Assembly (NCBI RefSeq): GCF_004104415.1
Contig: NZ_CP034669.1
DNA from: Corallococcus coralloides
Lineage (GTDB): Bacteria > Myxococcota > Myxococcia > Myxococcales > Myxococcaceae
Strand: one strand, 5' to 3'
DNA length: 64,000 bases
The translations under genes and the position numbers were made by a program. The notes under the pieces were generated by a model. That model had not been told where the DNA came from, made no database searches, and saw nothing but the letters and a program-made list of their open reading frames with translations. Below, in pieces: positions 1-37,164 of this stretch. Each line of letters begins with the position of its first letter. Position 1 is the first letter of the stretch.

Positions 1-418
1 TTCGCGGCCCCGTTCTGCGTGGCCCTGGCGCGGATGCTGGGCATGGCGCGCGTGCCCTTCACGGGCGCGTCCGAGAGCGTCGCGGGATCGCCGGGCGGAG
101 GCGTCGCCGCGCGGCGGCCGCTGGTGCTCCGGGCACCGCCCTTGAGCTTCAGCTCGTAGTCGCCCAGCAGCACCTGCGAGGCCGGCGTCAGCGCCGTGGG
201 CCCCTCGATGCGCTCGCCGTCCACGAAGGTGCCGTTCTGGCTGCCTCCGTCCTCGACGTAGACGGCGCCGCCCTCCACGTAGACGCGCGCGTGCTGCCGC
301 GACACGCCGCCTTCCGTGAGGACCAGGTCATTGCCCTGCTGGCGGCCGATCTTCAGCTCGCCCGCGATCTCGTGCTCGTGCTCAGTGCCGTCAGGGTGAC
401 GGACGACCAGGGTAGGCA
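1..418 (-). CDS. FHA domain-containing protein (N-terminal part; C-terminus runs off window start)
   Basis: Own reverse translation from ATG (cat at 416-418): MPTLVVRHPDGTEHEHEIAGELKIGRQQGNDLVLTEGGVSRQHARVYVEGGAVYVEDGGSQNGTFVDGERIEGP... canonical FHA motifs (GR..xxD..L, SRxHA, GSxNGT). Not in ORF track because it is truncated by the window edge. Confidence 0.75.
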
Positions 419-426
419 TGGGCGCG

Positions 427-2196
427 TCAGTCCTCGCGGAAGATGCTCATGTTCACGGGGATGCCCTTGCGCTGGAGCTCGTCGTAGAACTTCGGGACGA
501 AGCCCGACGCCACGTAGCGGCCACGCACCTTGTGGTCTTCCGTGAAGCCGTCCTGCTTGTAATAGAAGATGTCCTGCAGGGTCACGATGTCGACCTCCAT
601 GCCGGACACCTCGGTGATGAAGCAGATCTTGCGGGAGCCGTCGGAGAAGCGCGTCTGCTGCACGATGAGGTGCACGGCGCTGGCGATCTGCTCGCGGATG
701 GCCTTCACCGGCAGCTCCATGCCGGACATGAGCACCATCGTCTCCAGCCGGGCAATCGCGTCGCGCGGCGTGTTCGCGTGCAGCGTGGTGAGCGAACCGT
801 CGTGGCCGGTGTTCATGGCCTGGAGCATGTCCAGCGTCTCGCCGGAGCGGCACTCGCCCACCACGATGCGGTCCGGCCTCATGCGCAGGCAGTTCTTCAC
901 CAGCTCGCGGATGGTGATGGCGCCCTTGCCTTCCAGGTTGGGCGGGCGGCTCTCCAGCTGCACCCAGTGGTCCTGCGGCAGCTGGAGCTCCGCCGCGTCC
1001 TCCACCGTGATGATGCGCTCACCCTCCGGGATGAACGAGCTGATGATGTTCAGCGTCGTCGTCTTCCCGGAGCCCGTGCCGCCGGAGATGACGATGTTGC
1101 GCCGGGCCGTCACGCACATCTCCAGGAACTCGGCCATCTGCGCGGTGACCGTCTTGTATTTGATCAGGTCCTGGATCTTCAGCGCGTCCTTCTTGAACTT
1201 GCGGATGGTGATGCAGGGGCCCTTGAGCGCCAGCGGCGGGATGATGGCGTTCACGCGGCTGCCGTCCTTGAGGCGCGCGTCCACCAGCGGGCTGGATTCG
1301 TCGATGCGGCGGCCAATGGGCGCCACGATGCGCTCGATGACGCCGAGCACCGCCTGGTTGGAGGAGAACGTCTTCTCCGACAGGGTCAGCTTGCCCTTGC
1401 GCTCGATGTAGATCTGGTTGGCGTGGTTCACCATGATCTCGCTGATCTCTTCCGACGCGAGGAACGCTTCCAGGGGCCCCAGGCCCAGCGCCTCGTTGAT
1501 GACGTCGGTGAGCAGCTCCTCCCGGTCCACGTCCCCGGGAAGCTCCTGGTCCGCCTCCATCTGGTCGATGATGTCCCGGATGGCCTTCTCGGTGCGGCGC
1601 CAGAGCTCCTCGTCCCCGAGCCGGTCCATGTCCATGCGGCGCAGGTCCAGGTACTCGATGAGCCGGTCGTGGATCTCCTTCTGGAGCCGCGAGTAGCGCT
1701 CCAGCCGGGGGTCCACCTTGCGCTTGTTCTTCGCCATGGCCGCGGCCATGGACGCGGGCATGCGGCTGGGAGCCGCGGGGGCGGGCGCGGGCTCCTCCTC
1801 CTCGTAGGGCTCCTCTTCTTCGTAGGCCTCTTCCTCGTAGGCCTCTTCGCCCTGCTCCTCGTCGTAGGCCTCTTCCGCGGGCTCTTCCTCCAGCGGCTCC
1901 ACGTTGAGGATGTAGTCGCCGATGGAGACCTGGTCGGTGGGCTTGAGCACCATGGGGCCGGCGATCTTCTTGCCGTTCACGAAGGTGCCGTTCGTGGACT
2001 TCATGTCCACGATGATGAAGCGACCGTCCTTTTCGACGATGCGGGAGTGGGTCTTGGAGACGTTCCCCTTGGCGAGCACGATGTCGTTGCCGGCAATCCG
2101 GCCGATCGTGATCTCGTTCTTGGGGTACTCCCGCTGCTCCGAACCGCCACCCTTCTCCGTCAGCGTGATGAGAAACATGGGGTGGGATGCTACCAA
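427..2196 (-). CDS. CpaF/TadA-family secretion ATPase (T2SS/T4P VirB11-like) with N-terminal FHA domain and acidic linker
   Basis: 589 aa ORF. N-term FHA (IGRIAGNDIVLAKGNVSKTHSRIV...STNGTFVNG), acidic EEAYEEE linker, then Walker A GGTGSGKTT and the rest of the CpaF/TadA-type ATPase core. Real start may be Met7 (MFLITL...). Confidence 0.9.
   Translation of the reverse strand: MVASHPMFLITLTEKGGGSEQREYPKNEITIGRIAGNDIVLAKGNVSKTHSRIVEKDGRFIIVDMKSTNGTFVNGKKIAGPMVLKPTDQVSIGDYILNVEPLEEEPAEEAYDEEQGEEAYEEEAYEEEEPYEEEEPAPAPAAPSRMPASMAAAMAKNKRKVDPRLERYSRLQKEIHDRLIEYLDLRRMDMDRLGDEELWRRTEKAIRDIIDQMEADQELPGDVDREELLTDVINEALGLGPLEAFLASEEISEIMVNHANQIYIERKGKLTLSEKTFSSNQAVLGVIERIVAPIGRRIDESSPLVDARLKDGSRVNAIIPPLALKGPCITIRKFKKDALKIQDLIKYKTVTAQMAEFLEMCVTARRNIVISGGTGSGKTTTLNIISSFIPEGERIITVEDAAELQLPQDHWVQLESRPPNLEGKGAITIRELVKNCLRMRPDRIVVGECRSGETLDMLQAMNTGHDGSLTTLHANTPRDAIARLETMVLMSGMELPVKAIREQIASAVHLIVQQTRFSDGSRKICFITEVSGMEVDIVTLQDIFYYKQDGFTEDHKVRGRYVASGFVPKFYDELQRKGIPVNMSIFRED
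1801..1875 (-). repeat. Imperfect tandem 15-nt repeat (ctcgtaggcctcttc x4) encoding the (EEAYE)n acidic linker of the ATPase
   Basis: Seen directly: ctcgtagggctcctc / cgtaggcctcttc / ctcgtaggcctcttc / gtcgtaggcctcttc on plus strand; in frame with the ATPase ORF. Confidence 0.6.
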
Positions 2197-2327
2197 GCCC
2201 TCCTACGACCTCAAAGACTCCTGCGACGCTCGCCCGCCTGCTGCCCGGAAACGGACGGGCCGGCACCCTCCCCCTCTGAAGCAGGGACGGGCCGGCCCGG
2301 ATCCGACGTGAGGGCGCTGAAGGGCCG

Positions 2328-3776
2328 TCAGTCGAAGATGTTGAAGTTCACCTCGGAGCGGGCCTGCTTGTAGCGGGTCTTCACGTCCTCGATGATGCTG
2401 CGGACCTTGTCCGAGTCCGGGTTCACGATGCGCGGGGTGACGAAGATCACCAGCTCGCGCTTGGTGGAGTCGAACGCGCGGTTCTTGAACAGCTCGCCCA
2501 CGATGGGGATGTGACCCAGGCCGGGCAGCTTCGCGACGGCCTTCTGCTCGTCGTGGCTGAACACGCCGGACAGCACGATGGTCTCACCGTGGCGCACGGT
2601 GACGTTCGTCTTGACCTTGCGGGTGCGGAAGCCGGGGATGGCGGACGAACCACCGAAGGACACGGACACGGAGGTGTCGATTTCGGAGGCCTCGGCCTCC
2701 ACTTCCGTCTGGATGTTGCCGTTGCGGTCCGCGGTGGGGCGGATGTTCAGGATGACGCCGTAGGGCTTGTACTCCACCGTGAACTGCGTGTTGGTGATGA
2801 GGGGGATGGGCACCTCGCCGCCGGCGAGGAACTCCGCCTTCTCACCGCTGGCGCACACCAGCTTGGGCTGCGCCAGCAGGCGGCCGTAACCGTCGTTGGC
2901 CTGGAAGCCGATGCTCAGGTCGGAGCCGCCCGTCGCGCCCAGCACCAGGTTGGAGATGGCGTCGCCGGAGGGGATGAGCGCCTTGTTCAGCGTCGCGGCG
3001 GCGGTCAGCGTGCCGGTGATGTCCGTGGGGTACTTGATGCCGTAGCGGTCGCGGCTGTTGCGGCGGATTTCGACGAACTGGACCTCGGAGAGGATCATCC
3101 GCTTGATGCCGACGACGAGCAGGTTCTCCACCTTCTCACCGATGGCCTTGGTGATGAGCTCCGCCTTCTGGAGGTCCTGCTGGCTCTCCACGGAGCCCTC
3201 CAGGAAGATGGTCGCGCCCACCACGTTGGCCTGCACGTTCTTCAGGCCCGCCTTCTGGAAGGCCGCGTTCAGGTTCTGGGCGACGAGCTTCTTGGCGTTG
3301 GGGGCGATCTTCACGAACGACTTCACGTTCGGGTACAGGCTCACCACCTGCTCGATGCGGTCCGCGTCCTGCGTGGTGTAGGCCTGACCGTCCAGGTAGA
3401 TGCGGTCGCCCACCATGCGCACGGACACGCCTTCGATTTCCCCCAGCAGGCGCTTGATTTCGGAGATGACCTCGTTGGGGTCCTGCTTGCGGACCGTCAC
3501 CAGGTAGCTGATGCGCTGACCGGAGGACTTCCAGACGAGCAGCGTCGTCTTGCCCTCGGCGTTACCGGTGACGAGCAGCTGGCCGGTGCCGAGCGTCTTC
3601 ACCTCGGCGATGGACGGATCTCCCAGCGCGACGCGGCTGAGGCCGGGAATGGTGAGCACCTTCTGGGTACCCACCCCCAGGCTGACGGAGCTGCCCTCCT
3701 GGGCCAGGGCGGGGGCACTGGCCACCAGGGTGACGAGGGCGCCGAGCGCCAGGGCTTGCGTGAAGCGAGTGGACAT
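2328..3776 (-). CDS. Secretin, CpaC/RcpA (Tad/Flp pilus-type) family outer-membrane channel
   Basis: 482 aa, signal peptide (ALALGALVTLVASAPALAQE), N-terminal BON/secretin-N like region, C-terminal secretin domain (…VPGFRTRKVKTNVTVRHGETIVLSGV…PGLGHIPIVGELFKNR…ELVIFVTPRIV). Confidence 0.9.
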   Translation of the reverse strand: MSTRFTQALALGALVTLVASAPALAQEGSSVSLGVGTQKVLTIPGLSRVALGDPSIAEVKTLGTGQLLVTGNAEGKTTLLVWKSSGQRISYLVTVRKQDPNEVISEIKRLLGEIEGVSVRMVGDRIYLDGQAYTTQDADRIEQVVSLYPNVKSFVKIAPNAKKLVAQNLNAAFQKAGLKNVQANVVGATIFLEGSVESQQDLQKAELITKAIGEKVENLLVVGIKRMILSEVQFVEIRRNSRDRYGIKYPTDITGTLTAAATLNKALIPSGDAISNLVLGATGGSDLSIGFQANDGYGRLLAQPKLVCASGEKAEFLAGGEVPIPLITNTQFTVEYKPYGVILNIRPTADRNGNIQTEVEAEASEIDTSVSVSFGGSSAIPGFRTRKVKTNVTVRHGETIVLSGVFSHDEQKAVAKLPGLGHIPIVGELFKNRAFDSTKRELVIFVTPRIVNPDSDKVRSIIEDVKTRYKQARSEVNFNIFD

Positions 3777-3822: not shown

Positions 3823-4359
3823 CTATCCCAGATGTTGTTGCTGCCACCACATGGCCCAGAAAGTCCCGAGCGCGATGGAGACGCCGTAGGGGATGTGTCG
3901 CGCGGGAGCGGGCGAGGTTTCCTCGCGCATCCATTTCATCCGCACCGCCCAGCGACGGGCCACCGCCGCCAGCGTGTCCCAGACGGCCCCCTGCCACAGC
4001 AGCGTGACGATGGCCTGCAGCGCGCCCGTCAGCGAGATGAAGGCCGCCGCGGCGAGCACCGTGGGAAAGCCCAGCACGCAGCCCACGCCCGCCATCAGCT
4101 TGACGTCACCCCACCCCATGCGCCCGCGCAGCGCACCCGGCACCAGCAGCGCCGCGAGTCCCGCGCCCGCCAGAAGCCCGCTCACCACCCCCGACTCCAG
4201 CCCGCCCACCCCTTCGGACACACCGCGCACCCCGAGCCCCAGCACGATGAGCGGATAGGTCACGGCGTTCGGGATGAGCCGGCGCAGCACGTCGGTCACC
4301 ACCGCAATCACCAGGGCCACTCCCAGAATCGTCCACAGCGCGAGCTGAACAGGTGTCAT
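3823..4359 (-). CDS. Prepilin peptidase, A24 family (CpaA/TadV-like)
   Basis: 178 aa polytopic membrane protein; conserved D…IP motif (VVTDVLRRLIPN) and GxGDVKL motif (MGWGDVKLMAGVG) typical of type IV prepilin peptidases. Confidence 0.85.
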   Translation of the reverse strand: MTPVQLALWTILGVALVIAVVTDVLRRLIPNAVTYPLIVLGLGVRGVSEGVGGLESGVVSGLLAGAGLAALLVPGALRGRMGWGDVKLMAGVGCVLGFPTVLAAAAFISLTGALQAIVTLLWQGAVWDTLAAVARRWAVRMKWMREETSPAPARHIPYGVSIALGTFWAMWWQQQHLG

Positions 4360-4471: not shown

Positions 4472-5329
4472 TCAGTGGATGACGAGGCGGATCTTCTCAC
4501 TGCAGATGAAGTACTCGTCCCCGTCCTCGACCTTGCGGCGCTTGATGCGCTGCTTGTTGAACCAGGTCCCGTTCGAGGAGCCGAGGTCCTCGATGTAGAA
4601 GTCGCCGCCGTCGCGGGCGATGACGGCGTGCTCGCGCGACACCTTGCCGGAGTTGATGACGAAGTCGCAGTGCTTGCCGCGGCCGATGACGTAGCGGTCC
4701 TTGACGATCTTCTCCTGCTCGCCGGACTCCAGGACGAGATAGAGCGAGGCGCCCTCCTCCTCGTCCGGCTCCTCCATCGGCTCTTCTTCTTCGGCCTCCT
4801 CGGGAGGCTCGTCCTGCATGTCGTCGAGCGGCGGCTCCTCCTGCTCCGGCAGGGGCTCCTCCTCGTCCTCGATCATGTCGTCCGCGGAGGGCGGGGGCGG
4901 CTCGTTCTTGCCCTTGATGAGCCGCTCCAGTTCCGCGGCCGTCTCCAGGACGCGCTCGGCGACCTCGCGGCGCACCGGATCATTGTCCAGCCCGTTGGAG
5001 GACGGGCGCTCCTCCGCGTTGCGCGCGGCGGGACGCGCGGCCGGCGCGGGGGCGAGGACTGGAGGACCGCCCTTGGCAGCGGCGGCCGGCGTTGGCGAGG
5101 CGGAGGGACGCGCCGCCGGGGCGGGCGCGGGTGACGGCACCGCCGCCACGGCGGGCTCGCCCTTCGTCTTCACGTCAATGAAGCCGTTGAGACGCGCGAA
5201 CATGAACAGCGCCTGGTTGATGAGCGCGTCGCGATCCGACCCCATCTGCTGGGCCATCTCTTCGTACGTCTCCCACAGGTGCTCGGCGATGCCGACCTTG
5301 CGTGCGGGACGGGAGTTCTGATCGATCAT
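4472..5329 (-). CDS. FHA domain-containing protein (C-terminal FHA, central acidic Pro/Glu-rich disordered region)
   Basis: 285 aa; C-terminal FHA (YVIGRGKHCDFVINSGKVSREHAVIARDGGDFYIEDLGSSNGTWFN); long A/P-rich and E/D-rich low-complexity middle. Confidence 0.8.
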   Translation of the reverse strand: MIDQNSRPARKVGIAEHLWETYEEMAQQMGSDRDALINQALFMFARLNGFIDVKTKGEPAVAAVPSPAPAPAARPSASPTPAAAAKGGPPVLAPAPAARPAARNAEERPSSNGLDNDPVRREVAERVLETAAELERLIKGKNEPPPPSADDMIEDEEEPLPEQEEPPLDDMQDEPPEEAEEEEPMEEPDEEEGASLYLVLESGEQEKIVKDRYVIGRGKHCDFVINSGKVSREHAVIARDGGDFYIEDLGSSNGTWFNKQRIKRRKVEDGDEYFICSEKIRLVIH

Positions 5330-5392: not shown

Positions 5393-7546
5393 TTACTGGA
5401 ACGCCCGGAGATACGTGAGGTTGTCCAGGTTGTCGGTGATGGACTCCAGGGCCACCTGGAGCACGCCGTCCGCTGAAGGATAGGCGACGTAGGCCAGGCT
5501 GGCGCCGTCCACGTCCGTGGCCACCACGGAAGCAGGCAGGGTGTAGACCGCCAGGTTGCTCGACTGACTGGTGTCCACGCCGAAGACGTAGCGGCGGAAG
5601 CGCGGCAGCAGCGTCACCACGTAGCGGTCACCCGCCACCAGCCGGCTCCCCGCCCCGATGGTGGGCGTCAGCGTGAGCGTCAACGGCGCGGGCGCGAAGG
5701 TGGTGGGCGACTTGGGCGGCTCCAGGCCCAGGTCGAAGCCGTCCGGGTGGTAGTAGTAGTCCAGGACGCTGGAGACCGTGTACGCCTCGCCGACGTTGAG
5801 CCGCTGCAGGTACGTGTCGCCGGTCTCCGCGCCGGAATAGAGCACGAAGGGCTTCACGTTCGGGCCCGCGCGCACGGAGAACAACGGGTACGACGCGCAG
5901 GGCTCCGCCGCGTCGGCGACCGCCGGGTCCGACAGGTCCGGGTAGAGCCGCGTGAGGCCATTGCCCTGGTCCTCCAGGCGCAGGATGGGGATGACCGCCG
6001 CGCAGGCACCCGCGTTGTTCGCCAGGATGATGGAGTCGCCGGGAATCACGCCGCGGGCCTCCACCAGGGGCGTCTCGATGAGGAGCGCGGGGTCCTCCTG
6101 GGTCAGGTCGCGAGAGAGTCCGACCAGTCCGGGCAGCACGCCCTGGAAGACGAAGCGGTACGTCCCGCCAGGCACCGAGCCGTTGCAGAGGAACGCCGTG
6201 GCGTTGGTCGTATCCGTCACCTGGGGGCAGCCGGGCTGCTCCACGAGGATGCCCTGGAACTGATCCACGCGCGCCACCTCGTTGTTGTCACGCAGCTCCG
6301 CGGACACCGACGAGTTCAGCGCCTTGTTTTCGGAGTCGCGGTCCAGGTTGAACGCGCGCCGCTCGTCCGCGCGGAACAGGGTGATCCGCCCGTCGGACGA
6401 CGGCATGATGCCCAGGAGCGGAATGGGGGTGAGGTAGGGCACGCTGTCCGCCCGGAGCTCGCGGACCTCCAGGCCCGAGCGCAGCGTGAGGCCCGTGGGC
6501 AGACCCGCGGACGGCCGCAGGGTCAGCATGGGCGCGCCGGTGACGTCGCGGGCGAGCACCGGCGCCGCGGACGGCGCCAGCGGATCCGGCCCATTGTCGA
6601 GCGCGATGACGCCCTCGCAGTCAGACGAGTTGCACGTCAGCTCATCCAGCACCACGAACACGTAGCGGCCCGCGGGCTCGGTCACGGTGTCCGACACCTT
6701 GTAGCTGGGGTGCGTGGTCACGAGCCGCGCCGGGATGTCCACCAGGTCCGCGTAGTTGGGCACCGCGTAGGGCGCCGGCCGCGGCCGCTTGTAGGGGATC
6801 TCCACGGAGGCCCCGTCCGCGACGACGCGCACCAGCCGGCTGGTGCCGGACACGTTGCGGATGGCGACCACCAGCGAGTCCGCCACGCCGGCCCGCGCGG
6901 GCAGCGTGACCATGGACATCACCGTGTCCGCCGGCTTGAGGCAGAAGACGGGCAGCGCGGGAGGGAGCCCGGCGGCGTCGAAGCCCTCCGGGCCGGGCAG
7001 GTCCTGGCGCATCACCACCCCGCCGCCGAAGGGGCCGCAGAGCTGCTCGGCGGCCTCCGGGCGCGTCTGGAGCGCGTAGTACAGGACGCTCGGCTCGCCC
7101 TCCGCCACCGGGGCGTGCGCGGCGAAGGCGGTGATGAGCTGGCCGGTCGCCAGGCGCGTCACCTCGTTGAGGCGCGCGCGGTCCGCGGCCACCACGGAGA
7201 TGCCGCGTCCGCCGGAGCTGCGCGCGTAGATGTACGGGCCGGACACGTCCTCGCCCTTGTCGTTGTAGCCCACGTCGCGGGTGAGCGAGTCGGGCCGCGC
7301 GATGACGGGGATGGCCAACGGCTCCAGCGGGTTCGGCGCGGGGATGAACTCACGCGGCGCGCGCGTCAGGTCCAGCACGCGCAGCTCATCCCGGTCCTGC
7401 GAGGTGACGAAGACGAGCTGGTTGGAGAGCACCACGTCGTACGTGCCGGACAGACCGGCGGCGCCCGCGGTGCTGGTGGTGTCGGAGCAGGCGAGCGCGA
7501 GGCTCGCGCCGCTCAGCAACAGGGCAGCAAGAAAGCCGCGCTTCAA
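5393..7546 (-). CDS. Large lipoprotein of unknown function (about 717 aa)
   Basis: Track ORF 5393..7564 (GTG). A TTG at 7544-7546 gives a textbook lipoprotein signal, MKRGFLAALLLSGASLALAC, and sits 4 nt after the upstream gene stop (tgaccttgaag). No recognisable catalytic motifs; no homology call possible by eye. Confidence 0.6.
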   Translation of the reverse strand: MKRGFLAALLLSGASLALACSDTTSTAGAAGLSGTYDVVLSNQLVFVTSQDRDELRVLDLTRAPREFIPAPNPLEPLAIPVIARPDSLTRDVGYNDKGEDVSGPYIYARSSGGRGISVVAADRARLNEVTRLATGQLITAFAAHAPVAEGEPSVLYYALQTRPEAAEQLCGPFGGGVVMRQDLPGPEGFDAAGLPPALPVFCLKPADTVMSMVTLPARAGVADSLVVAIRNVSGTSRLVRVVADGASVEIPYKRPRPAPYAVPNYADLVDIPARLVTTHPSYKVSDTVTEPAGRYVFVVLDELTCNSSDCEGVIALDNGPDPLAPSAAPVLARDVTGAPMLTLRPSAGLPTGLTLRSGLEVRELRADSVPYLTPIPLLGIMPSSDGRITLFRADERRAFNLDRDSENKALNSSVSAELRDNNEVARVDQFQGILVEQPGCPQVTDTTNATAFLCNGSVPGGTYRFVFQGVLPGLVGLSRDLTQEDPALLIETPLVEARGVIPGDSIILANNAGACAAVIPILRLEDQGNGLTRLYPDLSDPAVADAAEPCASYPLFSVRAGPNVKPFVLYSGAETGDTYLQRLNVGEAYTVSSVLDYYYHPDGFDLGLEPPKSPTTFAPAPLTLTLTPTIGAGSRLVAGDRYVVTLLPRFRRYVFGVDTSQSSNLAVYTLPASVVATDVDGASLAYVAYPSADGVLQVALESITDNLDNLTYLRAFQ

Positions 7547-7548
7547 GG

Positions 7549-9078
7549 TCAGTTCTCCTGGCACACGCTGGTGCCCTGGTTCGGATCGCGCTGCTGCTGG
7601 ATGCCCAGCTTCGCCACCAGCCGCGCGTCCTGGGGACGCGCCAGGTCGGGGAGGTCCACGATGGCCACCTGGCTGTCACCGAAGTTGGTCACGAACAGCC
7701 GCGCCGCGTTCGTCCCGGCGGGGTTGTCCACCGTCAGCCCGAAGGCCTGCGACGGGTTGCTGGTCTGGTTGAGTTCGTTGACGAGCGGCACCTGCGCCAC
7801 GACCTGCCCGAGCGCCTCGTCGTAGAGGGACAACGCGCTGTCGCCGGTGCTCGTCACCGCGATGATGTGGGTGTCCGCGTTGGACGTGCCCGGCGTCCGC
7901 GAGAGGATCTGCATGTCGCTCACGCCGTCGGGCATGGGCACCGCGGAGACCACGCGGAAGAAGGGCTGGGTGGCGGGGGTGCCCGGCACCGCGTCGTATT
8001 CGAAGTCCAGGGTGAGCAGCGTGTCCGGGCCGCGCGCCAGCAGGTACAGCCGCTCGCGCACGAGGTTCGGACGCGCCGCCAGCTCCTCCGCCGTCACCGG
8101 ACGGGGCACCACGCGCGCCGCGCGCGCCTCGCGGATGCGGTACTCCGACTGCAGCGAGGGCTCGAGGATGGTGCCGGGGTCGTTCTTGTCCACCAGCCGC
8201 AGCACGAAGTTGCCGCCCACGGTGCCGTTGATGCCGGCCACGAAGTTGCGGCCCGTCACGTAGAGGTAGCCCGCGCCCACCGTCACCGAATCCGAGCCGC
8301 CGTAGAGGTAGCCCTCGGGTGACAGCGAGATGAAGCCCAGCGTGTCGCGCGTGGGGTTGTCCAGCTTCACCGTGGCCAGGTAGTTCTCGAAGTTGCTGCT
8401 GGACTTCGCGGGCGAGTCCGCCGCCTCCGAGTGCGTCACGTACAGGTTGCCGCTCGCCTCATCCACCGTCACGCCGATGGGCGACGGAGCGCGGGGCAGG
8501 CCCGCGCGGCCCTCGTCACTGAGGGACGACGGGATGTCGTCGGAGAGAGACAGCGCGCCGTCGCGGCAGTCCACGCCGCCCTGCACGCAGGTGAGCACCG
8601 GGGCGCCATTGGCCTCCAGGCTCACGTCCACCGCGTTCAGGTTGTTGCCCTCCGCGCGCGAGGGCACGAACAGGCGCGGCAGCCCCGTGGCGGGGTTCAC
8701 CCACATGCCCAGCTCACCCGCGAAGCTGCGGATCTGCACGAGCGACTCGTCCGCGGACGCCAGGTCCTCGAAGGCGAGCGCGGAGTCCGGGAGCACGCTG
8801 CCCAGGTGGGGCACCATGACAGCCTGCCCATCCACCTGCGTGCTCAGCGTGTCCAGGTTCAGCGCCACGACCGAGCCGGAGTCGTAGCAGTTGTCGAAGT
8901 TGGCGTTCGCAACGAAGAGATAGCCGTTGCTCACGGATGGCCCGCCCGCCGCCGGAGGGCGCCAGAACGCCACCCCGCTGGGGTACACGAAGCGGGTGGA
9001 CGGAGGCGGGTTCGGATCGGATTCAATCGAACACGCCCCGAGGAGCAGCAGCGCGGGGGTCAGGAAGTAGAGGCGCAT
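7549..9078 (-). CDS. Lipoprotein of unknown function (about 509 aa)
   Basis: Track ORF 7549..9309 has a junk Arg/Pro-rich N-extension. ATG at 9076-9078 (checked) gives MRLYFLTPALLLLGACSIESD (lipobox LLGAC). No recognisable catalytic motifs; no homology call possible by eye. Confidence 0.6.
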   Translation of the reverse strand: MRLYFLTPALLLLGACSIESDPNPPPSTRFVYPSGVAFWRPPAAGGPSVSNGYLFVANANFDNCYDSGSVVALNLDTLSTQVDGQAVMVPHLGSVLPDSALAFEDLASADESLVQIRSFAGELGMWVNPATGLPRLFVPSRAEGNNLNAVDVSLEANGAPVLTCVQGGVDCRDGALSLSDDIPSSLSDEGRAGLPRAPSPIGVTVDEASGNLYVTHSEAADSPAKSSSNFENYLATVKLDNPTRDTLGFISLSPEGYLYGGSDSVTVGAGYLYVTGRNFVAGINGTVGGNFVLRLVDKNDPGTILEPSLQSEYRIREARAARVVPRPVTAEELAARPNLVRERLYLLARGPDTLLTLDFEYDAVPGTPATQPFFRVVSAVPMPDGVSDMQILSRTPGTSNADTHIIAVTSTGDSALSLYDEALGQVVAQVPLVNELNQTSNPSQAFGLTVDNPAGTNAARLFVTNFGDSQVAIVDLPDLARPQDARLVAKLGIQQQRDPNQGTSVCQEN

Positions 9079-9244
9079 CAGAGGGGGGCGGAGTGTAGGA
9101 ACGCGGCCCTGCCCCGGGCAACTGAATAGGGCTGCCACTATTCCCGGCCGCCCGCCCGCCGACATCCGCCCCCATCCATAGGGCGTGCGCCGCTCCCCTG
9201 GAGGGGGAACGGGCACGCTCCGGCGGTGAAGCGGCGGCCGGGCA

Positions 9245-11353
9245 TCAGGCCGCGGCGAGTTCGGCCTGGATCTTGGAAAAGTCCGCCACCTGGTTGAACA
9301 GGGCGCCAATCTCCGTGAGGAACCGGATGCGGTTCTCCCGCAGGTCCTTGTCCTCGGCCATCACCATCACCTTGTCGAAGAAGGTGTCCACGGCGGGCTT
9401 CAGGCCGGTGATCTCCTTGAGCGCGCCGGCGAAGTCGTCCGCGCGCACATGCTCACCCACCTTGTCGCGCGCCTGGGTGAAGGCGGTGTGGAGGTTCTTC
9501 TCCGGCTCGTCGGTGAAGCGCTGCGGGTTGGTCTGCCCGCCCGCCACGTCCTTGCCCTGCTTCTCCACGATGTTGACCACGCGCTTGAACGCCGCCGCCA
9601 GCGGCTGGAAGTCCGAGTGGCCCACCAGCAGGCTCAGGGCCTCCAGGCGCTTCTTCGCGGCCACCAGGTCGTCGAAGCCCACGGCCAGCACCGCCTCCAC
9701 GACGTCCGTGCGGTGCTGCTCGCCCCACAGCGCCTTGAGGCGGCCGCGGAAGAACTCCAGCACCTGCTCGCGCGGGGCCGCTTCACCCGGCTTGCGCTTC
9801 ACGTTGGCCAGCTTGGGGGCCAGCAGGCGCAGCGCCTCATCCACCGCGGCGGACAGGCTGAAGCGGTAGCCGCGCCCCAGCACGATGCGGATGATGGACA
9901 GGCACGCGCGGCGCAGCGCGAACGGATCCGCCGCGCCGGACGGCGCCTTGCCAATGGCGAAGATGCCGCACAGCGAGTCCAGCCGGTCCGCCAGGCCGAT
10001 GAGCGCGCCCGCGTCCTGGGACGGCAGCGCGTCCTCGGCGCCGCGGGGCAGGTAGTGCTCGAAGATGGCCAGCGCCACCGCGTCGGGCTCGCCGCCCGCT
10101 CTCGCGTACTCGCGGCCCATCACGCCCTGGAGCTCCGGGAACTCGCCCACCATGCCGGTGACCAGGTCCGCCTTGGACAGCGTGGCGGCGCGCTCCACCG
10201 TGGCCGCCTCCCCTGCCCTGTCCGTGGCCTGGGCCAGCCAGCCCGCCAGCGCGCGGAAGCGCTCCACCTTCTCCAGGTACGTGCCCAGCTGGCCCTGCCA
10301 CACCACGCGGCCCAGCTTCTCCACGCGGTCCGCCAGCGGCGTGCGGCGGTCCTCGTCGAAGAAGAAGCGCCCGTCCGCGAGCCGCGCCGCCAGCACGCGC
10401 TGGTAGCCGCGCAGGGACAGCTGCTCGTCGCGCACCGGCGTGTTGGACACGGCGATGAAGCGCGGCAGCAGCTTCCCCTTCGCGTCCGTCAGCGAGAAGT
10501 AGCGCTGGTGGCTCTTCATCTCCTGCACCAGGACTTCCGGGGGCAGGTCCAGGTGGCGCTCCTCGAAGCTGCCCACCACGGGGCTCGGCAGCTCCACCAG
10601 GTTCGTCACTTGGTCCACCAGGCCCTCGTCCTCCAGCAGCCGAGCGCCCGCCGAAGTGGCCGCGGCGTTCACCTTGCGCAGCAGCTCCGCGCGGCGCTTC
10701 GCGATGTCCGGCACCACGTGCGCCTTCTCCAGCGCGGCCTCGTAGTCCGAGGGCGCCTTCAGCGCGATGGCGCCCGGCGCGAGGAAGCGGTGGCCGTAGG
10801 TCGTGCGGCCCGCCTTCACGTCGCCCAGCACCACCGGCAGCTCCGTGTCGCCCAGGAGCGCCACCAGCCACTGCACCGGGCGCGCGAAGGCCGTGTCCAC
10901 GTCACCCCAGCGCATGGACTTCTTGAAGTTGATGCCGTGCACGGCCGCGTGCACCGCGTCCTGGAGGATGGCCTCCGCCGGACGGCCCTTCTCCTCCACG
11001 CGCGCGGAGACGTACTCGCCCTTGGCCGTGGTGGTGCGCCCGAGCGCGTCCACGGACAGCTTGAGGCTTTCGGCGAACTTCTCCGCCGCCTTGGTGGGCT
11101 TGCCCTGCGCGTCGAAGGCGGCCTTGGCGCTGGGGCCCAGCACCTCCTTCGTGATGTCCTCGCCCGCGTCCGCCACGCCGCGGACCAGGACGGCCAGCCG
11201 GCGCGGCGTGCCGAACGTGCGCACCTCGCCGTGCTTCAGGCGGGCGTCGGCCATGCGCTCGGTGAGCACGCGCTTCAGGTCCTCCAGCGCGGGGATGATG
11301 AACGACGCCGGGAGTTCCTCGGCACCGACCTCCAGCAGCAGATCACGCGCCAC
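9245..11353 (-). CDS. glyS: Glycine--tRNA ligase beta subunit
   Basis: 702 aa; [18 protein letters not shown]… characteristic GlyS N-terminus and length; overlaps glyQ stop by 11 nt as usual. Confidence 0.93.
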
Positions 11354-12424: not shown

Positions 12425-14698
12425 TCAGTTCGAGTAGGCCGGGAGGTCGGCCAGTCGAATCTGCAGCTTCGTCACTTCGCCGGGACGGATGGGAGCGGAC
12501 AACAGCTTGCTCGTACCGCCGGGGTCCTGCGGGTCCACCACGCGCAAGCGGTACGTCCCGATGGGCAGGGGGAACTTGATCAACGGGGACGTGCCCAGCT
12601 GCGTGGCGCCGTCGAACACCGCCGCGTTCTTCGGCACGGTGTAGAGCGTCAGCCACCCCAGGCCCGCCTTCGCCGCGCCCTTCGAGGTGGTCGTGTCGAG
12701 CACCTCCGGGTTCTCCACCTGGGTGACGGTGGTGACGGGCTCCGGCGGCCGCTCCGAGGGCTCGGGCTTCGCGGGGCGCGGTTCCACCTTCGCCACCGCG
12801 GGCGCGTCCGGCGTGGCGGCCGGTTTCGTCTTGCGGCCTCCCTTGCCGGCGGGGGCCTTCTTCGTGTCCGCGGCGGTCGCTGCCACCACCGGCTCGGGCG
12901 TGGGCGGCGCCTCCACCGGCGCCGGCTCGGGCTCGGGCTCGGGGGTCGTCTTCTGGACGAAGCCCGGCGGAGGACCGGAGGGCTTCGGCGGCCACTGCCC
13001 GTTCGCGGCGGGGTCCACGGGCGGAGCCGGATCCAGCTCCGCCTTCACCCACTGCTTCGCGGAGTCGAACGCCGGCATGAACACGCGGCGCACGGGTTCG
13101 AGCGTCGCCATGTAGGCCACGCCGCCCAGGATGAGGAGCAGGAACAACCGCATGCCCCAGCCGGAGCCCTCGCGAGCGGGCGGGGCCACGGGGGGCGCTT
13201 CAACGGACTCCGCTTCCTCCACCTGGCGTGAGGGCCGCGAGGCGCCGCGCACCGGACGGGCCTTGAAGCGCTGGGTCTGGAGCTCGCTGGGCGGATCCAT
13301 CAGCCCGTCGGACTCGGCCGCGTCGCGGGCCTCGGTGGGCTCGGGCCGCGCGCTGGGACGGGCCCGCGAGGGCCGCACGGCGTCAGCGGGAGGACGGATG
13401 ACCCGGGGAACGGGCGTCCCGTCAGGCCCCGAGGGCCGCTGCGCGCGCGGCGTCACGGCGGGCGTGTTGAGGCGAGAGGCGCGGGCCTCCACGGCTTCAT
13501 TGGCGGGGCGCGGGGTGGCGCGGGGCGCGGGCGCCGTGGACTCGGCCGCGGTGCGACGGACGGGCGTGGGCTTGAAGGACGCCGCGACGTCCGCGGGCGG
13601 GGCCTCCGCGTGCGGCGACTTCACCTGCGCGGTGGCGGCGGAGGCGGCCTGCTCACTGCCCTCCTCCACCTGGAGCGCACCGGCGGCTTCGCTGACGCGG
13701 GCGTCCTCGGCGCGGCTGGCCAGCTCCAGGAGCGTGCGCGTCTTCTGGCGCTTCTCCTCGAAGAGCTCGCCCATGACGGCGGTCATCTGGTCTTCGTCGA
13801 ACAGCTCGGAGCCCAGCGTGGCCTCGATGGCGCGCGCCATCTCCCGGCAGGTCCCGAAGCGCTGGGTGGCATCGCGCGACAGCGCCTTGAGCACCACCGC
13901 TTCCAGGGCCTCCGGCACGGCCGCGTTGAGCGAGCGCGGCGCGGGGATGTCCCCGTCCACGATCTGCATCATCACGGCGGCTTCGCCGGGGGCGTTGAAC
14001 AGGCGCTGTCCCGCCAGCAGCTCGTGGAGCATCACGCCCGTGGAGAACTGGTCGCTGCGGCCATCCAGGTCCTTGTTGCGCACCTGCTCCGGGGACATGT
14101 ACCCGCTGGTCCCCTTCACGGTGCCCACCTGCGTGCGGCCCAGCTTGCCGCGCGCCTTGGCGATGCCGAAGTCGATCACCTTCACGACGCCGTCGTAGGT
14201 GAGCATCACGTTCTTCGGGGACACGTCGCGGTGCACCACCGCCACCGGGCGGCCCGACGGATCCATGAAGTGGTGGGCGTAGTGCAGGCCCAGGCACGTG
14301 TCGCGAATCACGCGCGCGCTGAAGCCCAGCGGCAGCGCGTACTTGCGCCGCTCCGCCATCTTCACCACCTGCTCCAGGTTCTGGCCGGGCAGGAACTCCA
14401 TGGCGAGGTACAGCTCGCCGTCCTCCTCACCCAGGTCGAACACCTGTCCGATGTTCGCGTGCGAGAAGGCCGCGGTGATGCGCGCCTCATCCAGGAACAT
14501 CTTGACGAACTGGTCGTCCTTCTTGATGTCGGGGAGGATCTGCTTCACCGCCACGAACTTGCGGAAGCCACCGGGGCCGGAGGTGTACGCGAGGAACAGC
14601 TCCGCCATCCCGCCCATCGAGAGTCGGGTGAGGATCTCGTACTTTCCAATGCGCCGCCCCCGGTCGGGATCGTCTCCGGCGACTCCCTGCGTGCTCAT
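12425..14698 (-). CDS. Ser/Thr protein kinase with TM segment and C-terminal PEGA domain
   Basis: Hanks kinase motifs (VAVK, HRDVSPKNVML, DFGIAK, GTSGYMSPEQ). Pro-rich linker, TM LFLLLILGGVAYMATL, C-terminal PEGA-like beta domain (LGWLTLYTVPKNAAVFDG…YRLRVV). Track ORF extends to 14935; ATG at 14696-14698 (MSTQGVAGDD…) is the likely real start. Confidence 0.9.
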   Translation of the reverse strand: MSTQGVAGDDPDRGRRIGKYEILTRLSMGGMAELFLAYTSGPGGFRKFVAVKQILPDIKKDDQFVKMFLDEARITAAFSHANIGQVFDLGEEDGELYLAMEFLPGQNLEQVVKMAERRKYALPLGFSARVIRDTCLGLHYAHHFMDPSGRPVAVVHRDVSPKNVMLTYDGVVKVIDFGIAKARGKLGRTQVGTVKGTSGYMSPEQVRNKDLDGRSDQFSTGVMLHELLAGQRLFNAPGEAAVMMQIVDGDIPAPRSLNAAVPEALEAVVLKALSRDATQRFGTCREMARAIEATLGSELFDEDQMTAVMGELFEEKRQKTRTLLELASRAEDARVSEAAGALQVEEGSEQAASAATAQVKSPHAEAPPADVAASFKPTPVRRTAAESTAPAPRATPRPANEAVEARASRLNTPAVTPRAQRPSGPDGTPVPRVIRPPADAVRPSRARPSARPEPTEARDAAESDGLMDPPSELQTQRFKARPVRGASRPSRQVEEAESVEAPPVAPPAREGSGWGMRLFLLLILGGVAYMATLEPVRRVFMPAFDSAKQWVKAELDPAPPVDPAANGQWPPKPSGPPPGFVQKTTPEPEPEPAPVEAPPTPEPVVAATAADTKKAPAGKGGRKTKPAATPDAPAVAKVEPRPAKPEPSERPPEPVTTVTQVENPEVLDTTTSKGAAKAGLGWLTLYTVPKNAAVFDGATQLGTSPLIKFPLPIGTYRLRVVDPQDPGGTSKLLSAPIRPGEVTKLQIRLADLPAYSN

Positions 14699-14790
14699 GC
14701 GGGGGCGGATGTTACCCGCCGAACCCTCCCAGGTCGATGACCGTCTTTCCAGACGGTCCCTCCCGGCCTCCGGAGTCCGGTGAAAGCGGG

Positions 14791-15579
14791 TTAGGCGCCG
14801 AACCGCCGCCGCCGCACGTCGAGCATCCAGGCCTCGAGCGCGGCCACGGCCGCCGGTGGTGGCTCCAGAGGCAACACGGAGGCCGCGTCCGCCGCGTCGA
14901 GCACCGCGAAGGCGCGCGTCACCTCCCGCTGCCACGCTTCGCTGAGCGCGTCGGTCAGCTCGATGCGCTCACCGCTCCGCTTGCGCTCCACCAGCGTGCG
15001 GGCTTCGCCAAAGCCATACGGCTCCAGCAGGACGGTGACGTCCGTCTCCACCTCGCCCGTGCGCAGCGCATGCGTCCCGGTGAGCGTGGTGCGCAGCACG
15101 TACAGCAACTTCTTCACGGAGCGGAATCCGCTCTTCTCCCACTCGCGCAACTGCCCCTGCGCGAAGCCGCGGTAGTGCCGGTGGATGCGCCGCGACAGCA
15201 CGGCCCGCACCAGCGGCCGCAGCGCCTCCAGCTCCGGCAGGGCCCGCACGGTGATGGCCCCCAGCACCCGCTCGATGTAGTTGCCGTTGCCCTGGAGGAT
15301 GCCCAGCAGCACGGGCTGCAGCTCGTTGGACGAGTAGTCCACCTCCACGCCCTCCAGCACCTCCAGCCGCTCCGCCGGCACGTGCCGGGGCTGGAGGCCA
15401 AGCAGCGCGGCGGTGTGCGCGATGTGGATGGCCTTGAGGTCCAGGTCGCTGTCATGCGACGGGAAACCGTACGCATGCGCGCCGGACAGCGAGATGACCA
15501 GGTGCTCGCGCTGGAGGGACTCCGCGTCCAGCACGCGGTCCGCCATGTGCTCCTGATGCTCCGTCACCCTGCCCTTCAT
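14791..15579 (-). CDS. Pol-beta superfamily nucleotidyltransferase, RlaP/YcgL-like
   Basis: 262 aa; N-terminal GS/GA…hDhDh NTase motif (LSGAHAYGFPSHDSDLDLKAIH); size and motif fit PF10127-type minimal NTases. Start ATG overlaps upstream stop (ATGA). Confidence 0.6.
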   Translation of the reverse strand: MKGRVTEHQEHMADRVLDAESLQREHLVISLSGAHAYGFPSHDSDLDLKAIHIAHTAALLGLQPRHVPAERLEVLEGVEVDYSSNELQPVLLGILQGNGNYIERVLGAITVRALPELEALRPLVRAVLSRRIHRHYRGFAQGQLREWEKSGFRSVKKLLYVLRTTLTGTHALRTGEVETDVTVLLEPYGFGEARTLVERKRSGERIELTDALSEAWQREVTRAFAVLDAADAASVLPLEPPPAAVAALEAWMLDVRRRRFGA

Positions 15580-23109: not shown

Positions 23110-27321
<4,212 letters not shown>

Positions 27322-27453
27322 GTTGCCTCCGAAAACTTATGAGCGCTCAGGGCGCCAAACGTTTCGGGCCCCCGCCCTGCGCCCGGCCAGCCGCTCCCTC
27401 CACGAGGAAGCAGCCAGCCGGTCAGGCGGGCGCACCGGCTTCTTTGAAAAGGC

Positions 27454-31680
<4,227 letters not shown>

Positions 31681-31769
31681 TCGGTCTCCGGGGACGGCTG
31701 CTCGGGCGGGGCAAACTTCAGTAACGCGCGGCGGCGCCGGGAAATTTGGCAAATGTCAAATGGGCAAAG

Positions 31770-31797
31770 CCGGCGCCCCAGCAAAGGGAGCGCCGGC
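31770..31797 (-). promoter_or_regulatory. Putative rplL-rpoB intergenic attenuator hairpin
   Basis: Imperfect 10-bp GC-rich inverted repeat (ccggcgcccc…ggagcgccgg) in the 180-nt rplL-rpoB spacer, followed on the transcript by a partly T-rich stretch; by analogy with the E. coli rplL-rpoB attenuator. Confidence 0.3.
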
Positions 31798-31861
31798 CTG
31801 CTCATCCGATCAGGCGGCTACCCGGGATTTCCCGGAAGAACAGGGTAGCCCCTGTACAGAA

Positions 31862-32233
31862 CTACTTGATCTCGACGGTGGCGCCAGCCGCGACGAGCTG
31901 GTCCTTGATCTTCTTGGCGTCGTCCTTGTTGACGCCTTCCTTGACCGTCTTGGGCGCGCCCTCGACCAGGTCCTTGGCCTCCTTCAGGCCCAGGCCGGTG
32001 ATCGCGCGGATCTCCTTGATGACGTTGATCTTGTTGGCGCCGGCGTTCGCCAGCACCACGTTGAACTCCGTCTTCTCCTCGACAGGAGCGGCGGCGGCGG
32101 CGGGGCCCGCGGCGGCAACGGCCACGGCGGCGGCGGAAACGCCCCACTTGTTCTCCAGCAGCTTCACGAGCTCGCCCGCCTCGAGGACGGTGAGCTTCGA
32201 GAGTTCTTCAGCAATCGCGTTCAAATCGGCCAT
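31862..32233 (-). CDS. rplL: 50S ribosomal protein L7/L12
   Basis: 123 aa; [27 protein letters not shown]…. Confidence 0.97.
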
Positions 32234-32322
32234 GGAACTGTTCCTTCTGGTTGACTAACGGCCGGCGACCCATTTAGGCGGCTCGGCCGAAGAGGTTGCG
32301 GTAGAAAAACTTCTCGGGACGA

Positions 32323-32844
32323 TTACTGACCCTGCGCCTTGTCCGCGTGCGCCTGGATGACGCGCGCGAGCTGCGACCCGGGGGCCGCGATGGTCCGGAC
32401 CAGCTTGCCTGCAGGCTGGTTGAGCATGCCGAGCAACATCCCGCGCAGCTCATTGAGGCCCGGCAGCTTCGCCAGTGCCTTCACGCCGTTGGCGTCGACC
32501 TTGTTACCGGCGACGACGGCGCTACGGACCTTGATGGTCTCCATGTCCTTGATGAAATCCATCAGGATCTTCGCAGGAGCCACCTCGTCGTCGTAGCTGA
32601 TGCACAGCGCCACGGGACCGGTGAAGTCATCCGAGATCGCGGAGACGGTCGTACCCTGAGCGGCACGGCGCGCCAGCGTGTTCTTGATGACCTTGTACTC
32701 GACCTTGCCCTCGCGGAACTTGCGACGCAGCTTGGTAACGGTCTCGACGTTCACCTTGGAGGACTCCACGAGCACCGCGGTCTTGGTCCGGGTGAACTTC
32801 TCGTGAAGCTCCTTGATCATTTCTTCCTTCTCGCTCTTCAGCAC
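32323..32844 (-). CDS. rplJ: 50S ribosomal protein L10
   Basis: 173 aa, conserved L10 sequence. Confidence 0.95.
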   Translation of the reverse strand: MLKSEKEEMIKELHEKFTRTKTAVLVESSKVNVETVTKLRRKFREGKVEYKVIKNTLARRAAQGTTVSAISDDFTGPVALCISYDDEVAPAKILMDFIKDMETIKVRSAVVAGNKVDANGVKALAKLPGLNELRGMLLGMLNQPAGKLVRTIAAPGSQLARVIQAHADKAQGQ

Positions 32845-33240
32845 CTTGACTCACCTCCTTCATGGCCCGACCTGACAGTCGGGCGTGATGCCTGGGCCAA
32901 AGTGGCAGAGCGAGAGAGGAGCCTCCGAGAGGCACCACACCGCACCTCCAGTCTCGGCAGGGCTGACCTTGCGGTCGTTTGAACCAGGAGCGGATGGACG
33001 GCCCGACCGGTTGCCCGGTTCCCAACGGACGCGTCTTCTCCCATCCAGGTCCCTGCTGTCATGAACCAGGTCGGAACGCCGCGTCTCACGACATGGCGCC
33101 CCAATTGCAAAAGCCGGGGGCCTATACCCCCGGCTTTCGCAAAGATCCAGCACTTTCTAACGGACCGACGTTCGCGGGCGACGGGACTGACGCTCCCCGT
33201 CAGGGAGCGCACCCTTCCCGGCCCGTCCTGACAGCCGCGA
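32845..33240 (-). promoter_or_regulatory. rplJ leader region (expected L10 autoregulatory leader plus internal promoter)
   Basis: Unusually long (about 396 nt) rplA-rplJ spacer in an otherwise tightly packed operon; the L10(L12)4-binding leader lies here in other bacteria. Structure not verified by eye. Confidence 0.35.
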
Positions 33241-33954
33241 TTAGCGGTGACGCGCCAGGATTTCCGTGGTGTCGAGCTTGATGCCCGGCCCCATGGTCGT
33301 CGAGATGGCGATGCCCTGCAGGTACACGCCCTTGGCGGTGGCCGGCTTGAGCTTCATCACCAGGTCCACCAGCGCGTTGAAGTTCGCCTCGAGCTTGTCC
33401 GCAGGGAAGGAGGCCTTGCCCATCTTCGCGTGGACGATGCCCGCCTTCTCAGCGCGGAAGTCGACCTTACCGCCCTTGGAGTCGCGGATGGCCTTGGCGA
33501 CGTCCATGGTCACCGTGCCGACCTTCGGGTTCGGCATGAGGCCACGGGGACCGAGCACCTTACCGAGGCGGCCGACGATACCCATCATGTCCGGCGTCGC
33601 GATGACGGTGTCGAAGTCGAGGAAGCCCTCCTCGATGCGCTTCTGGAGGTCCTCGGCGCCGACGATGTCCGCGCCGGCGTTGGCGGCCTCGGTGGCGCGC
33701 TCGCCCTTGGCGAACACGGCCACGCGCACGGTGGCGCCGGTGCCGTGCGGGAGCACCACGGCGCCACGGACCATCTGGTCCGCGTGCTTCGGGTCCACGC
33801 CCAGGTTGATGGCGACGTCGACCGTCTGGTCGTACTTCGTCGCGCGGGCATCCACCGTCTTCTTCAGCAGCGCGAAGCCCTCGGCGACGGCGTAGCGCTT
33901 GTTGCGGTCCACCAGCTCGTTGGACGCGCGGAACTTCTTTCCATTGGTAGCCAT
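33241..33954 (-). CDS. rplA: 50S ribosomal protein L1
   Basis: Track ORF begins at an upstream TTG; ATG at 33952-33954 (checked) gives [23 protein letters not shown]… conserved L1. Confidence 0.95.
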
Positions 33955-33982
33955 GGCAGGAATCCTTGAGAGGTAGGGCGGG

Positions 33983-34429
33983 CTAGCCGACGACGTCGAT
34001 GCCCATGGAGCGCGCGGTGCCGGCAATGGTGTTCATGCAGGCTTCGAGGGACGCGGCGGTGGTGTCCTGGATCTTCTTGTTGGCGATCTCCTCGAGCTGC
34101 TTACGGGTGATCTGCCCCACCTTCTCCTTGCCCGGCTTCTTCGCGCCCGAACCCTTCTTCTTCTCCGTGTGGAGACCCGCGGCCTTCTTGATGAGGATCG
34201 CGGCGGGAGGGGTCTTCAGGATGAAGGTGAAGGAGCGGTCCTGATACACGGTGATGATCACCGGGATGATCAGCCCCTCCTTGGCCTCCGCCTGCGTCTT
34301 GGCGTTGAACTGCTTGCAGAACTCCATGATGTTCACGCCCTGCTGACCGAGCGCGGGACCAATCGGCGGGGCGGGGTTCGCCTTGCCGGCGGGGATCTGC
34401 AACTTGACCTGACCTGTGACCTTCTTCAT
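33983..34429 (-). CDS. rplK: 50S ribosomal protein L11
   Basis: 148 aa; …[31 protein letters not shown]. Confidence 0.97.

Positions 34430-35973: not shown

Positions 35974-37164
<1,191 letters not shown>

Follow-up and report, generated by a model that had tools for sequence, protein, structure and literature searches.

The kilF gene of Corallococcus coralloides lies at one end of a 64,000-nt stretch of contig NZ_CP034669.1 (RefSeq assembly GCF_004104415.1), which is called the window hereafter. As judged from its sequence and gene context, the coding sequence at 427..2178 on the minus strand is orthologous in Corallococcus to the gene for KilF, the only motor ATPase in the Kil system of myxobacteria, because its product shares 89% identity with MXAN_3107 of Myxococcus xanthus and its gene lies in an identical gene order. 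Kil, a Tad-like pilus machine, is put together at the sites where prey is touched, and contact-dependent killing requires it (PMC8460266; PMC12075869); it has been described with a single ATPase (PMC8460266). In the protein of the window, the motor carries an N-terminal FHA domain joined to it by an acidic, disordered linker. The best explanation for this arrangement, which we regard as somewhat probable, is that the FHA domains of the kilF product would read a contact-induced phosphothreonine (pThr) mark and recruit the motor. This explanation fits because the pThr pocket is invariant, KilF clusters upon prey contact and the gene cluster encodes three FHA proteins. The FHA-fused motor is already known, both as the named protein KilF and as the published class III of CpaF proteins, and the sole undescribed detail is the conserved acidic-tyrosine make-up of the linker, which is clade-specific and makes a modest comparative point.

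The open reading frame (ORF) listed for this gene, 427..2196 on the minus strand, encodes 589 residues from an upstream TTG at 2196, six residues more than the 583-residue form that starts with the ATG at 2178 and ends with TGA at 427-429. This ATG is probably the true start, so that the protein begins MFLITL, because M1, F2 and L3 are invariant in an alignment of 53 KilF orthologues of at least 88% identity (alignment A1). Residue numbers refer to this ATG form unless the 589-residue ORF is named, and all the kilF features described below are on the minus strand. The closest database matches are Corallococcus proteins (96-99% identity), and the identity to the M. xanthus DK1622 protein (P0013, locus in CP000113.1) extends over 100% coverage. 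This protein, MXAN_3107, is listed as KilF with the description 'FHA domain; P-loop NTPase' in supplementary table 1 of Seef et al. 2021 (PMC8460266). The two proteins share the FHA-linker-ATPase layout and their genes share as neighbours kilA, kilC, kilD, homologues of MXAN_3102-3104 and glyQS. The order in DK1622 is that of the window, namely glyQ, glyS, two unknowns, an FHA protein, an A24 peptidase, a secretin, KilF and an FHA/TPR protein, and the synteny of kil cluster 1 (MXAN_3102-3108) was accordingly found in the window. An antisense ORF at 418..2373 on the plus strand and the other plus-strand ORFs over kilF were discarded as high-GC artefacts, the coding GC3/GC2 pattern being present in the minus frame only. 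A promoter and terminator scan of 300..2500 gave nothing that exceeded shuffles, and no separate regulatory element was seen between kilC and kilF or within the linker.

The protein consists of the FHA domain, about 45 disordered acidic residues, a conserved basic motif, a three-helix bundle, an N-terminal domain and the ATPase domain. The FHA domain covers residues 1-95 (1894..2178), with the Pfam core at residues 23-87 (1918..2112), and it scored 63.2 bits against the PF00498 cut-off of 20.7 (residues 29-93 of the 589-residue ORF). The putative pThr-contact residues are G26-R27 (2098..2103), S41 and H44 (2047..2058) and N63-G64 (within 1984..1995), all of them invariant in the 53 orthologues. 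The isolated N-terminus aligned to the FHA structures of Mycobacterium Rv1747 and EmbR (about 3e-8), and in the alignment to structure R27, S41, H44 and N63 fall on EmbR R312, S326, H329 and N348, which we take to be phosphopeptide-contacting positions. The pocket residues are kept in all three FHA domains of the cluster, those of KilF and of two neighbouring proteins. Because the pThr-contacting residues are invariant in the orthologues, a phosphothreonine-dependent recruitment by the FHA domain of KilF is plausible, and on these sequence data a phospho-dependent reader is preferred, its main rival being a phospho-independent adaptor. The TagH/Fha1 model TIGR03354 (VI_FHA) scored 46.9 bits, below its cut-off of 120.25, and KilF therefore does not belong to that family.

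The PilT/VirB11-type ATPase domain (T2SSE) spans residues 231-509 (652..1488) and reached 222.3 bits against the PF00437 cut-off of 24.9 (residues 237-515 of the 589-residue ORF), and a phmmer comparison with Caulobacter crescentus CpaF (9e24) gave E=3.1e-128 over query residues 128-573 and chain residues 39-489. The Walker A motif GGTGSGKTT (1057..1083), the Asp box VEDAAEL (985..1005), the Walker B motif RPDRIVVGECR (847..879) and the His box GHDGSLTTLHAN (772..807) align to the corresponding CpaF motifs and are invariant in A1. A three-helix bundle equivalent to CpaF NTD1/3HB (domain names from PMC11300603 and PMC12019362) was placed at about residues 160-234 (1477..1701) by alignment to 9e24; the model helices 157-179, 189-209 and 219-230 come from a low-confidence AlphaFold2 prediction on the 53-orthologue alignment (mean pLDDT 44, pTM 0.25). 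This model was poor because the alignment was too shallow, and only its secondary-structure outline was used, with caution. The best NCBIfam match was TIGR03819 (TadA, conjugal transfer-associated ATPase), although with 324 bits it stayed below the cut-off of 373; the NCBIfam names conjugal TadA, VirB11, TrbB, FlaI, GltG and TagH were dropped, all being below their cut-offs. An earlier note, made by a model from the DNA alone, had proposed both the N-terminal FHA domain and the VirB11/CpaF core, and both assignments passed their profile thresholds. It had also presented the architecture as noteworthy, but this has been published for M. xanthus KilF and for class III CpaF. Its further suggestion, a recruitment or gating of the ATPase that would depend on phosphothreonine, is compatible with the invariant pocket, with the clustering of M. 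xanthus KilF and with the presence of three FHA proteins in the cluster.

Yen et al. 2025 (PMC12019362) divided CpaF orthologues into class I, with no intrinsically disordered region (IDR) at the N-terminus, class II, with this region, and class III, with the order FHA-IDR-3HB-NTD-CAD. The protein of the window has the domain order of class III, with an N-terminal FHA domain and a disordered region between it and the three-helix bundle; it can be likened to Achromobacter xylosoxidans E3HIW0 (PMC12019362) by the published description only. Class III was found mostly in betaproteobacteria, and myxobacteria go unmentioned in that study (PMC12019362). The class II CpaF of C. crescentus (PDB 9e24, 8rkd) aligns with KilF over the three-helix bundle, the N-terminal domain and the ATPase and also has a disordered N-terminal region, but unlike KilF it has no FHA domain. 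Cluster representatives at 50% identity were searched exhaustively with HMMER, and the comparison covers the best 150 of them. An FHA domain stands directly upstream of the CpaF core in at least 54, which is a lower bound as the FHA profile was built from KilF orthologues only, and a CpaE/MinD-like domain is N-terminal in 43, with none of the 150 carrying both modules. Because the two modules are mutually exclusive, the comparison suggests that the N-terminal position of CpaF relatives could be a slot for localisation or recruitment. The CpaF of C. crescentus localises through a separate CpaE-type factor and not through a fused reader domain. The CpaE/MinD-CpaF fusions of Bdellovibrionota/Bacteriovoracia, which likewise come from predatory lineages, have a motor core 55-62% identical to that of KilF and an accessory module at the same N-terminal position, this module being a ParA/MinD-type ATPase and not an FHA domain.

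Many of the non-myxobacterial proteins nearest to the KilF core are CpaE/MinD-CpaF fusions of about 720 residues (P0139, P0146, P0151 and 40 others), and one of their clusters includes a protein from a metagenome-assembled genome (MAG) of Bacteriovoracia. The top-scoring representatives P0121-P0124 and P0126 have 876-1605 residues and two to four tandem T2SSE domains, and they may be either genuine concatenated motors or fusions created by gene calling or assembly.

The disordered linker covers residues 95-139 (1762..1896; PLEEEPAEEAYDEEQGEEAYEEEAYEEEEPYEEEEPAPAPAAPSR) and has a net charge of -20. Its charge-hydropathy values place it far on the disordered side (mean H 0.30 vs a boundary of 0.57), and the AlphaFold2 model, of low confidence throughout, has no secondary structure in it. 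Among relatives it is rich in insertions and deletions, in keeping with disorder. Its acidic/Tyr core, residues 97-129 (1792..1890), contains 21 acidic residues out of 33 and four tyrosines. The linker is followed by a conserved basic/Ala motif of net charge +4, MPASMAAAMAKNKRKVDPR (residues 140-158, 1705..1761), in which M140, P141, A142, S143, A145, D156, P157 and R158 are invariant in A1 and which was found in 120 of the 120 homologues listed. This motif is predicted to form a short helix directly before the three-helix bundle (helix 142-150 in the low-confidence model). At the DNA level, four copies of the 14-nt unit GAAGAGGCCTACGA, encoding E-E-A/P-Y-D/E, lie within 1802..1875. Three of them are exact (1820-1833, 1835-1848 and 1862-1875) and the fourth has two mismatches (1802-1815), and four matches were reached by none of 100 shuffles. 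The copies are spaced 27, 15 and 18 nt apart, and Tandem Repeats Finder reported overlapping arrays with periods of 15, 18 and 27 over the linker DNA. The EEAY repetition at the protein level exceeded composition-only shuffles (p about 0.013). Once the protein sequence and codon usage were fixed, the exact DNA repetition had a p of about 0.11, as three exact 14-mers appeared in 11% of the resamplings, and a recent duplication or slippage of the DNA repeat is therefore not demonstrated. Close relatives have GAG where the window has GAA in the linker.

The linker was also extracted from 75 related genomic loci. In Corallococcus (12 genomes and the window) it measures 45-51 residues and always has four Tyr units; what differs is the presence of a short insertion at the N-terminal end, the choice of A, P or G ahead of Tyr and single Glu codons. 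One linker residue separates two C. exercitus strains, and one Glu separates M. xanthus strains. Over all 75 loci the linker ranges from 37 to 99 residues (median 56), with a median acidic fraction of 0.40, Tyr making up 6.4% of the residues and a modal count of 4 Tyr per linker. The tyrosines have the context [ED]-E-[APG]-Y-[ED]-[ED]-E (280 Tyr sites in 76 unique linkers), most linkers carry an array of 2-6 copies of it, and Y114 is at least 90% conserved in A1. The number of units is steady over short evolutionary distances, and over long ones the composition is preserved. The linker of M. xanthus KilF differs from that of the window in having 57 instead of 45 residues and five instead of four Tyr, and also in having the Thr-containing segment GPxMTRAGQ, which the window linker lacks. 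A segment of this kind, xMTR[AT]x, occurs in Myxococcus, Pyxidicoccus, Archangium and Cystobacter linkers and is missing from the window linker and from all 12 Corallococcus genomes. The clearest repeat expansion in the family was seen in the Myxococcaceae MAG SMAG_U10425 (DATGQN010000021.1, L066), whose linker has eleven tandem [DE][DE]GYA units, AYDEGYADEGYADDGYADDGHDAGYADEGYADEGYADDGYAEDGYADDGYEDGYDE.

In the 54 FHA-bearing representatives described above, the linkers have 16-255 residues, are 0.04-0.30 acidic and are mostly Tyr-free, whereas the acidic fraction of the window linker is 0.34 over the equivalent span and 0.64 in its 33-residue core. Because the linkers of these other FHA-CpaF proteins lack it, the acidic-Tyr signature is, on this sequence comparison, specific to the Myxococcaceae/Archangiaceae clade. 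The picture that the earlier note had drawn of this region stood in part. The repeat is where it had been placed (1801..1875) and repetition is present, but the copies do not form a regular 15-nt array. The low-complexity stretch, given as some 60 residues of Glu, Ala, Tyr and Pro, is real but only about 41-45 residues long, as the last 19 are the basic/Ala motif. The linker does vary in length, as had been anticipated, and the invariance named beforehand as evidence to the contrary was not seen among the orthologues, but the variation is small between close strains and within the genus, and the number of four Tyr units stays constant in Corallococcus.

How KilF reaches its site of action has been followed in M. 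xanthus, where an N-terminal NeonGreen fusion (NG-KilF) is diffuse in the cytoplasm before prey is touched and then forms clusters where the contact is made (Seef et al. 2021, PMC8460266), and where KilF is required for pilus polymerisation and killing, as established at the genetic level (PMC8460266; PMC12075869). KilD clusters form without a functional Tad machine, and an upstream signalling cascade has been proposed by the authors (PMC8460266; PMC12075869); Seef et al. (PMC8460266) suggested an FHA-based cascade by analogy with type VI secretion systems (T6SS). In the PpkA/PppA/Fha1 system of the Pseudomonas aeruginosa T6SS, on which this analogy draws, an FHA protein links the local assembly of the secretion machine to a signal of contact or of membrane perturbation, but this FHA protein is separate from the ATPase, unlike in KilF. 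In the mechanism that we propose, prey contact would lead a Ser/Thr kinase to write phosphothreonine on a membrane-proximal or scaffold partner, candidates being a Kil platform protein, KilD or another FHA protein of the cluster. The six FHA domains tethered to the motor would capture this mark, and the diffuse motor would be concentrated at the contact site, where its hexameric core would drive pilin polymerisation and depolymerisation like Caulobacter CpaF. The FHA domain would in this way take the N-terminal 'localisation slot', which in close relatives is occupied by a CpaE/MinD-like module, and the acidic linker, flexible and self-repelling, could be a tether on which the FHA domains search during docking of the ring on the platform.

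Several points weigh against such a phospho-dependent recruiter, and one of them lies in the FHA region itself, which also exceeds the YscD-type model PF16697 (Yop-YscD_cpl; 37.7 bits vs 33.2), although this is below its generic FHA score. Members of the PF16697 family act without phosphopeptides. A Ser/Thr kinase encoded nearby (described below) is one of many in these genomes and is separated from the cluster by glyQS. No phosphorylation, binding or mutant data on the KilF FHA domain were found in the literature, and the FHA proteins of the kil clusters are treated as candidates in reviews of 2023 and 2025, the latter rating them only as 'promising candidates'. The NeonGreen fusion on the FHA end of KilF is fully functional, so the N-terminus tolerates bulk, which does not exclude a role of the FHA domain (PMC8460266). 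Finally, removal of the IDR of Caulobacter CpaF reduces but does not abolish pilus activity and tends to raise that of the ATPase (PMC12019362), a result that by analogy would fit gating as well as recruitment. The first of these points leads to the main rival, in which the FHA domain would work independently of phosphorylation as a structural adaptor, like YscD/PrgH of type III secretion systems (T3SS), and would dock the motor on the inner-membrane platform or on the FHA proteins of the cluster. Such an adaptor would be in keeping with the listing of MXAN_4649 as a PrgH-like FHA protein of kil cluster 2 in the table of Seef et al. 2021 (PMC8460266) and with the recruitment of a needle-less T3SS to the contact site by Kil (PMC8460266; PMC12075869). 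However, the generic FHA model scores far higher (63 bits) than the YscD-type one, and the Arg/Ser/His/Asn set is invariant in the 53 orthologues and kept in the two neighbouring FHA proteins. Given the YscD/PrgH background, such conservation is not expected of a phosphate pocket that is not used, and this counts against the adaptor, which we consider unlikely. We are slightly more doubtful still about a gating in cis, by analogy with the self-inhibition of GarA/OdhI, in which the FHA domain, the acidic linker or both would fold onto the ATPase ring or the basic MPAS...KNKRK motif and keep the motor inactive until a phospho-ligand is bound. The -20 linker abuts the conserved +4 motif, the rise in ATPase activity of the truncated Caulobacter protein points in the same direction, and the conserved Thr of the xMTR[AT]x segment could be a phospho-site in cis. 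Nevertheless, a pThr switch of this kind cannot be general, as the segment is missing from Corallococcus; gating alone would leave the contact-triggered re-localisation of KilF unexplained (PMC8460266), and the IDR does not set motor direction according to Yen et al. (PMC12019362).

For the linker alone there are two rival readings. In the first, the array of [ED]-E-[APG]-Y-[ED]-[ED]-E would be a selected, functional motif specific to the KilF of Myxococcaceae/Archangiaceae, serving either for multivalent acidic-aromatic docking or as sites of Tyr phosphorylation, although we would put this forward as a speculation with a low chance of being right. If it were true, the rapid gathering of the motor into clusters where prey is touched would be driven or tuned by the Tyr array together with the FHA domain, and the linker would be a second regulatory input and not a passive tether. 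A considerably stronger candidate, though still short of an even chance in our judgement, is a neutral low-complexity spacer whose GAG/GAA runs change by replication slippage and whose tyrosines have no function. The single-Glu-codon differences between close strains, the spread of lengths across the 75 loci, a sequence that is barely alignable outside the genus and a DNA repeat whose strength does not exceed the prediction from protein sequence plus codon bias are all as expected of such a spacer. It is less easily reconciled with the persistence of acidic fraction and Tyr content across genera, with the stereotyped context of the Tyr sites and the conservation of Y114, or with the different composition of the linkers in the other FHA-CpaF representatives.

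The rapid assembly, within minutes, of the myxobacterial killing machine at prey contact is an open question in the field, and the leading candidates for coupling contact to assembly are the FHA domains encoded in the kil clusters, among them the one that the motor carries. The window adds no new principle to this, but it gives a compact comparative picture, made up of the invariant pThr pocket of KilF, the slot filled by either FHA or CpaE/MinD and the conserved acidic-Tyr linker, which suggests point mutants and linker swaps.

The neighbouring genes of the cluster are all on the minus strand. The kilA orthologue, an A24 prepilin peptidase (Peptidase_A24) identified by Pfam and synteny (3823..4359), and the kilC orthologue, a CpaC-type secretin with BON and pilus N-terminal domains (2328..3776) whose position and length of 482 residues are as in M. 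xanthus, lie directly upstream of kilF and are Tad components (CpaA-type peptidase and CpaC-type secretin). On the other side, the ATG of kilD comes 7 nt after the kilF stop; only the 5' part of this orthologue (1..419) is present, cut by the window edge, and it encodes an N-terminal FHA domain (64.9 bits). The M. xanthus protein at this position has 743 residues with an FHA+FHA+TPR composition and is named KilD in the table of Seef et al.; in DK1622 it is followed by polA. The third FHA protein of the cluster is MXAN_3104-like (4472..5329; 288 residues in the M. xanthus counterpart), with a C-terminal FHA domain (71 bits) in which the GR/SxxH/NG residues are kept. A strongly acidic, Pro-rich and Tyr-free stretch, DDMIEDEEEPLPEQEEPPLDDMQDEPPEEAEEEEPMEEPDEEE, stands directly before this FHA domain, and acidic disordered segments flanking FHA domains thus recur in the cluster, because this protein has one as well. 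Two ORFs without Pfam matches and with uncertain starts occupy the positions of MXAN_3103 and MXAN_3102 (5393..9309).

Adjoining glyQ, about 10 kb from kilF, is a Ser/Thr protein kinase gene (12425..14968, minus strand; Pkinase 121 bits) encoding about 847 residues with a long C-terminal region free of Pfam matches. This kinase may write the marks that the cluster's three FHA proteins would read, although closeness by itself is weak evidence, since such kinases are numerous in these genomes. Further along, the region 23110..37601 is a housekeeping context with two very long ORFs (1409 and 1434 residues, at 23110..31755), tuf (35974..37212) and a tRNA-Thr/Gly/Tyr/Thr cluster plus tRNA-Trp, and nothing unusual was seen in it.

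Some observations concern the database records of the related loci. In ten draft assemblies from three genera (L001, L003, L004, L008-L012, L018 and L025), one contig of 8.76-9.0 kb carries kilA(3' part)-kilC-kilF-kilD-polA. One contig break falls at the same spot in kilA (about 4116..4210 of the window), where the GC content is 0.76-0.77 and the GC skew about -0.4, and this shared break is probably due to sequencing or assembly bias and not to biology. A record titled 'Comamonas sp. KCTC 72670' (BNCN01000010.1, L015) contains a Myxococcus-type kilF (87% identity) on a 361-kb contig, with a linker resembling that of M. hansupus P0028, and it is probably mislabelled. Likewise, the record of 'Corallococcus terminator BB12-2' (JBLZWL010000118.1, L027) has a Myxococcus-type linker, unlike that of C. 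terminator CA054A (L008).

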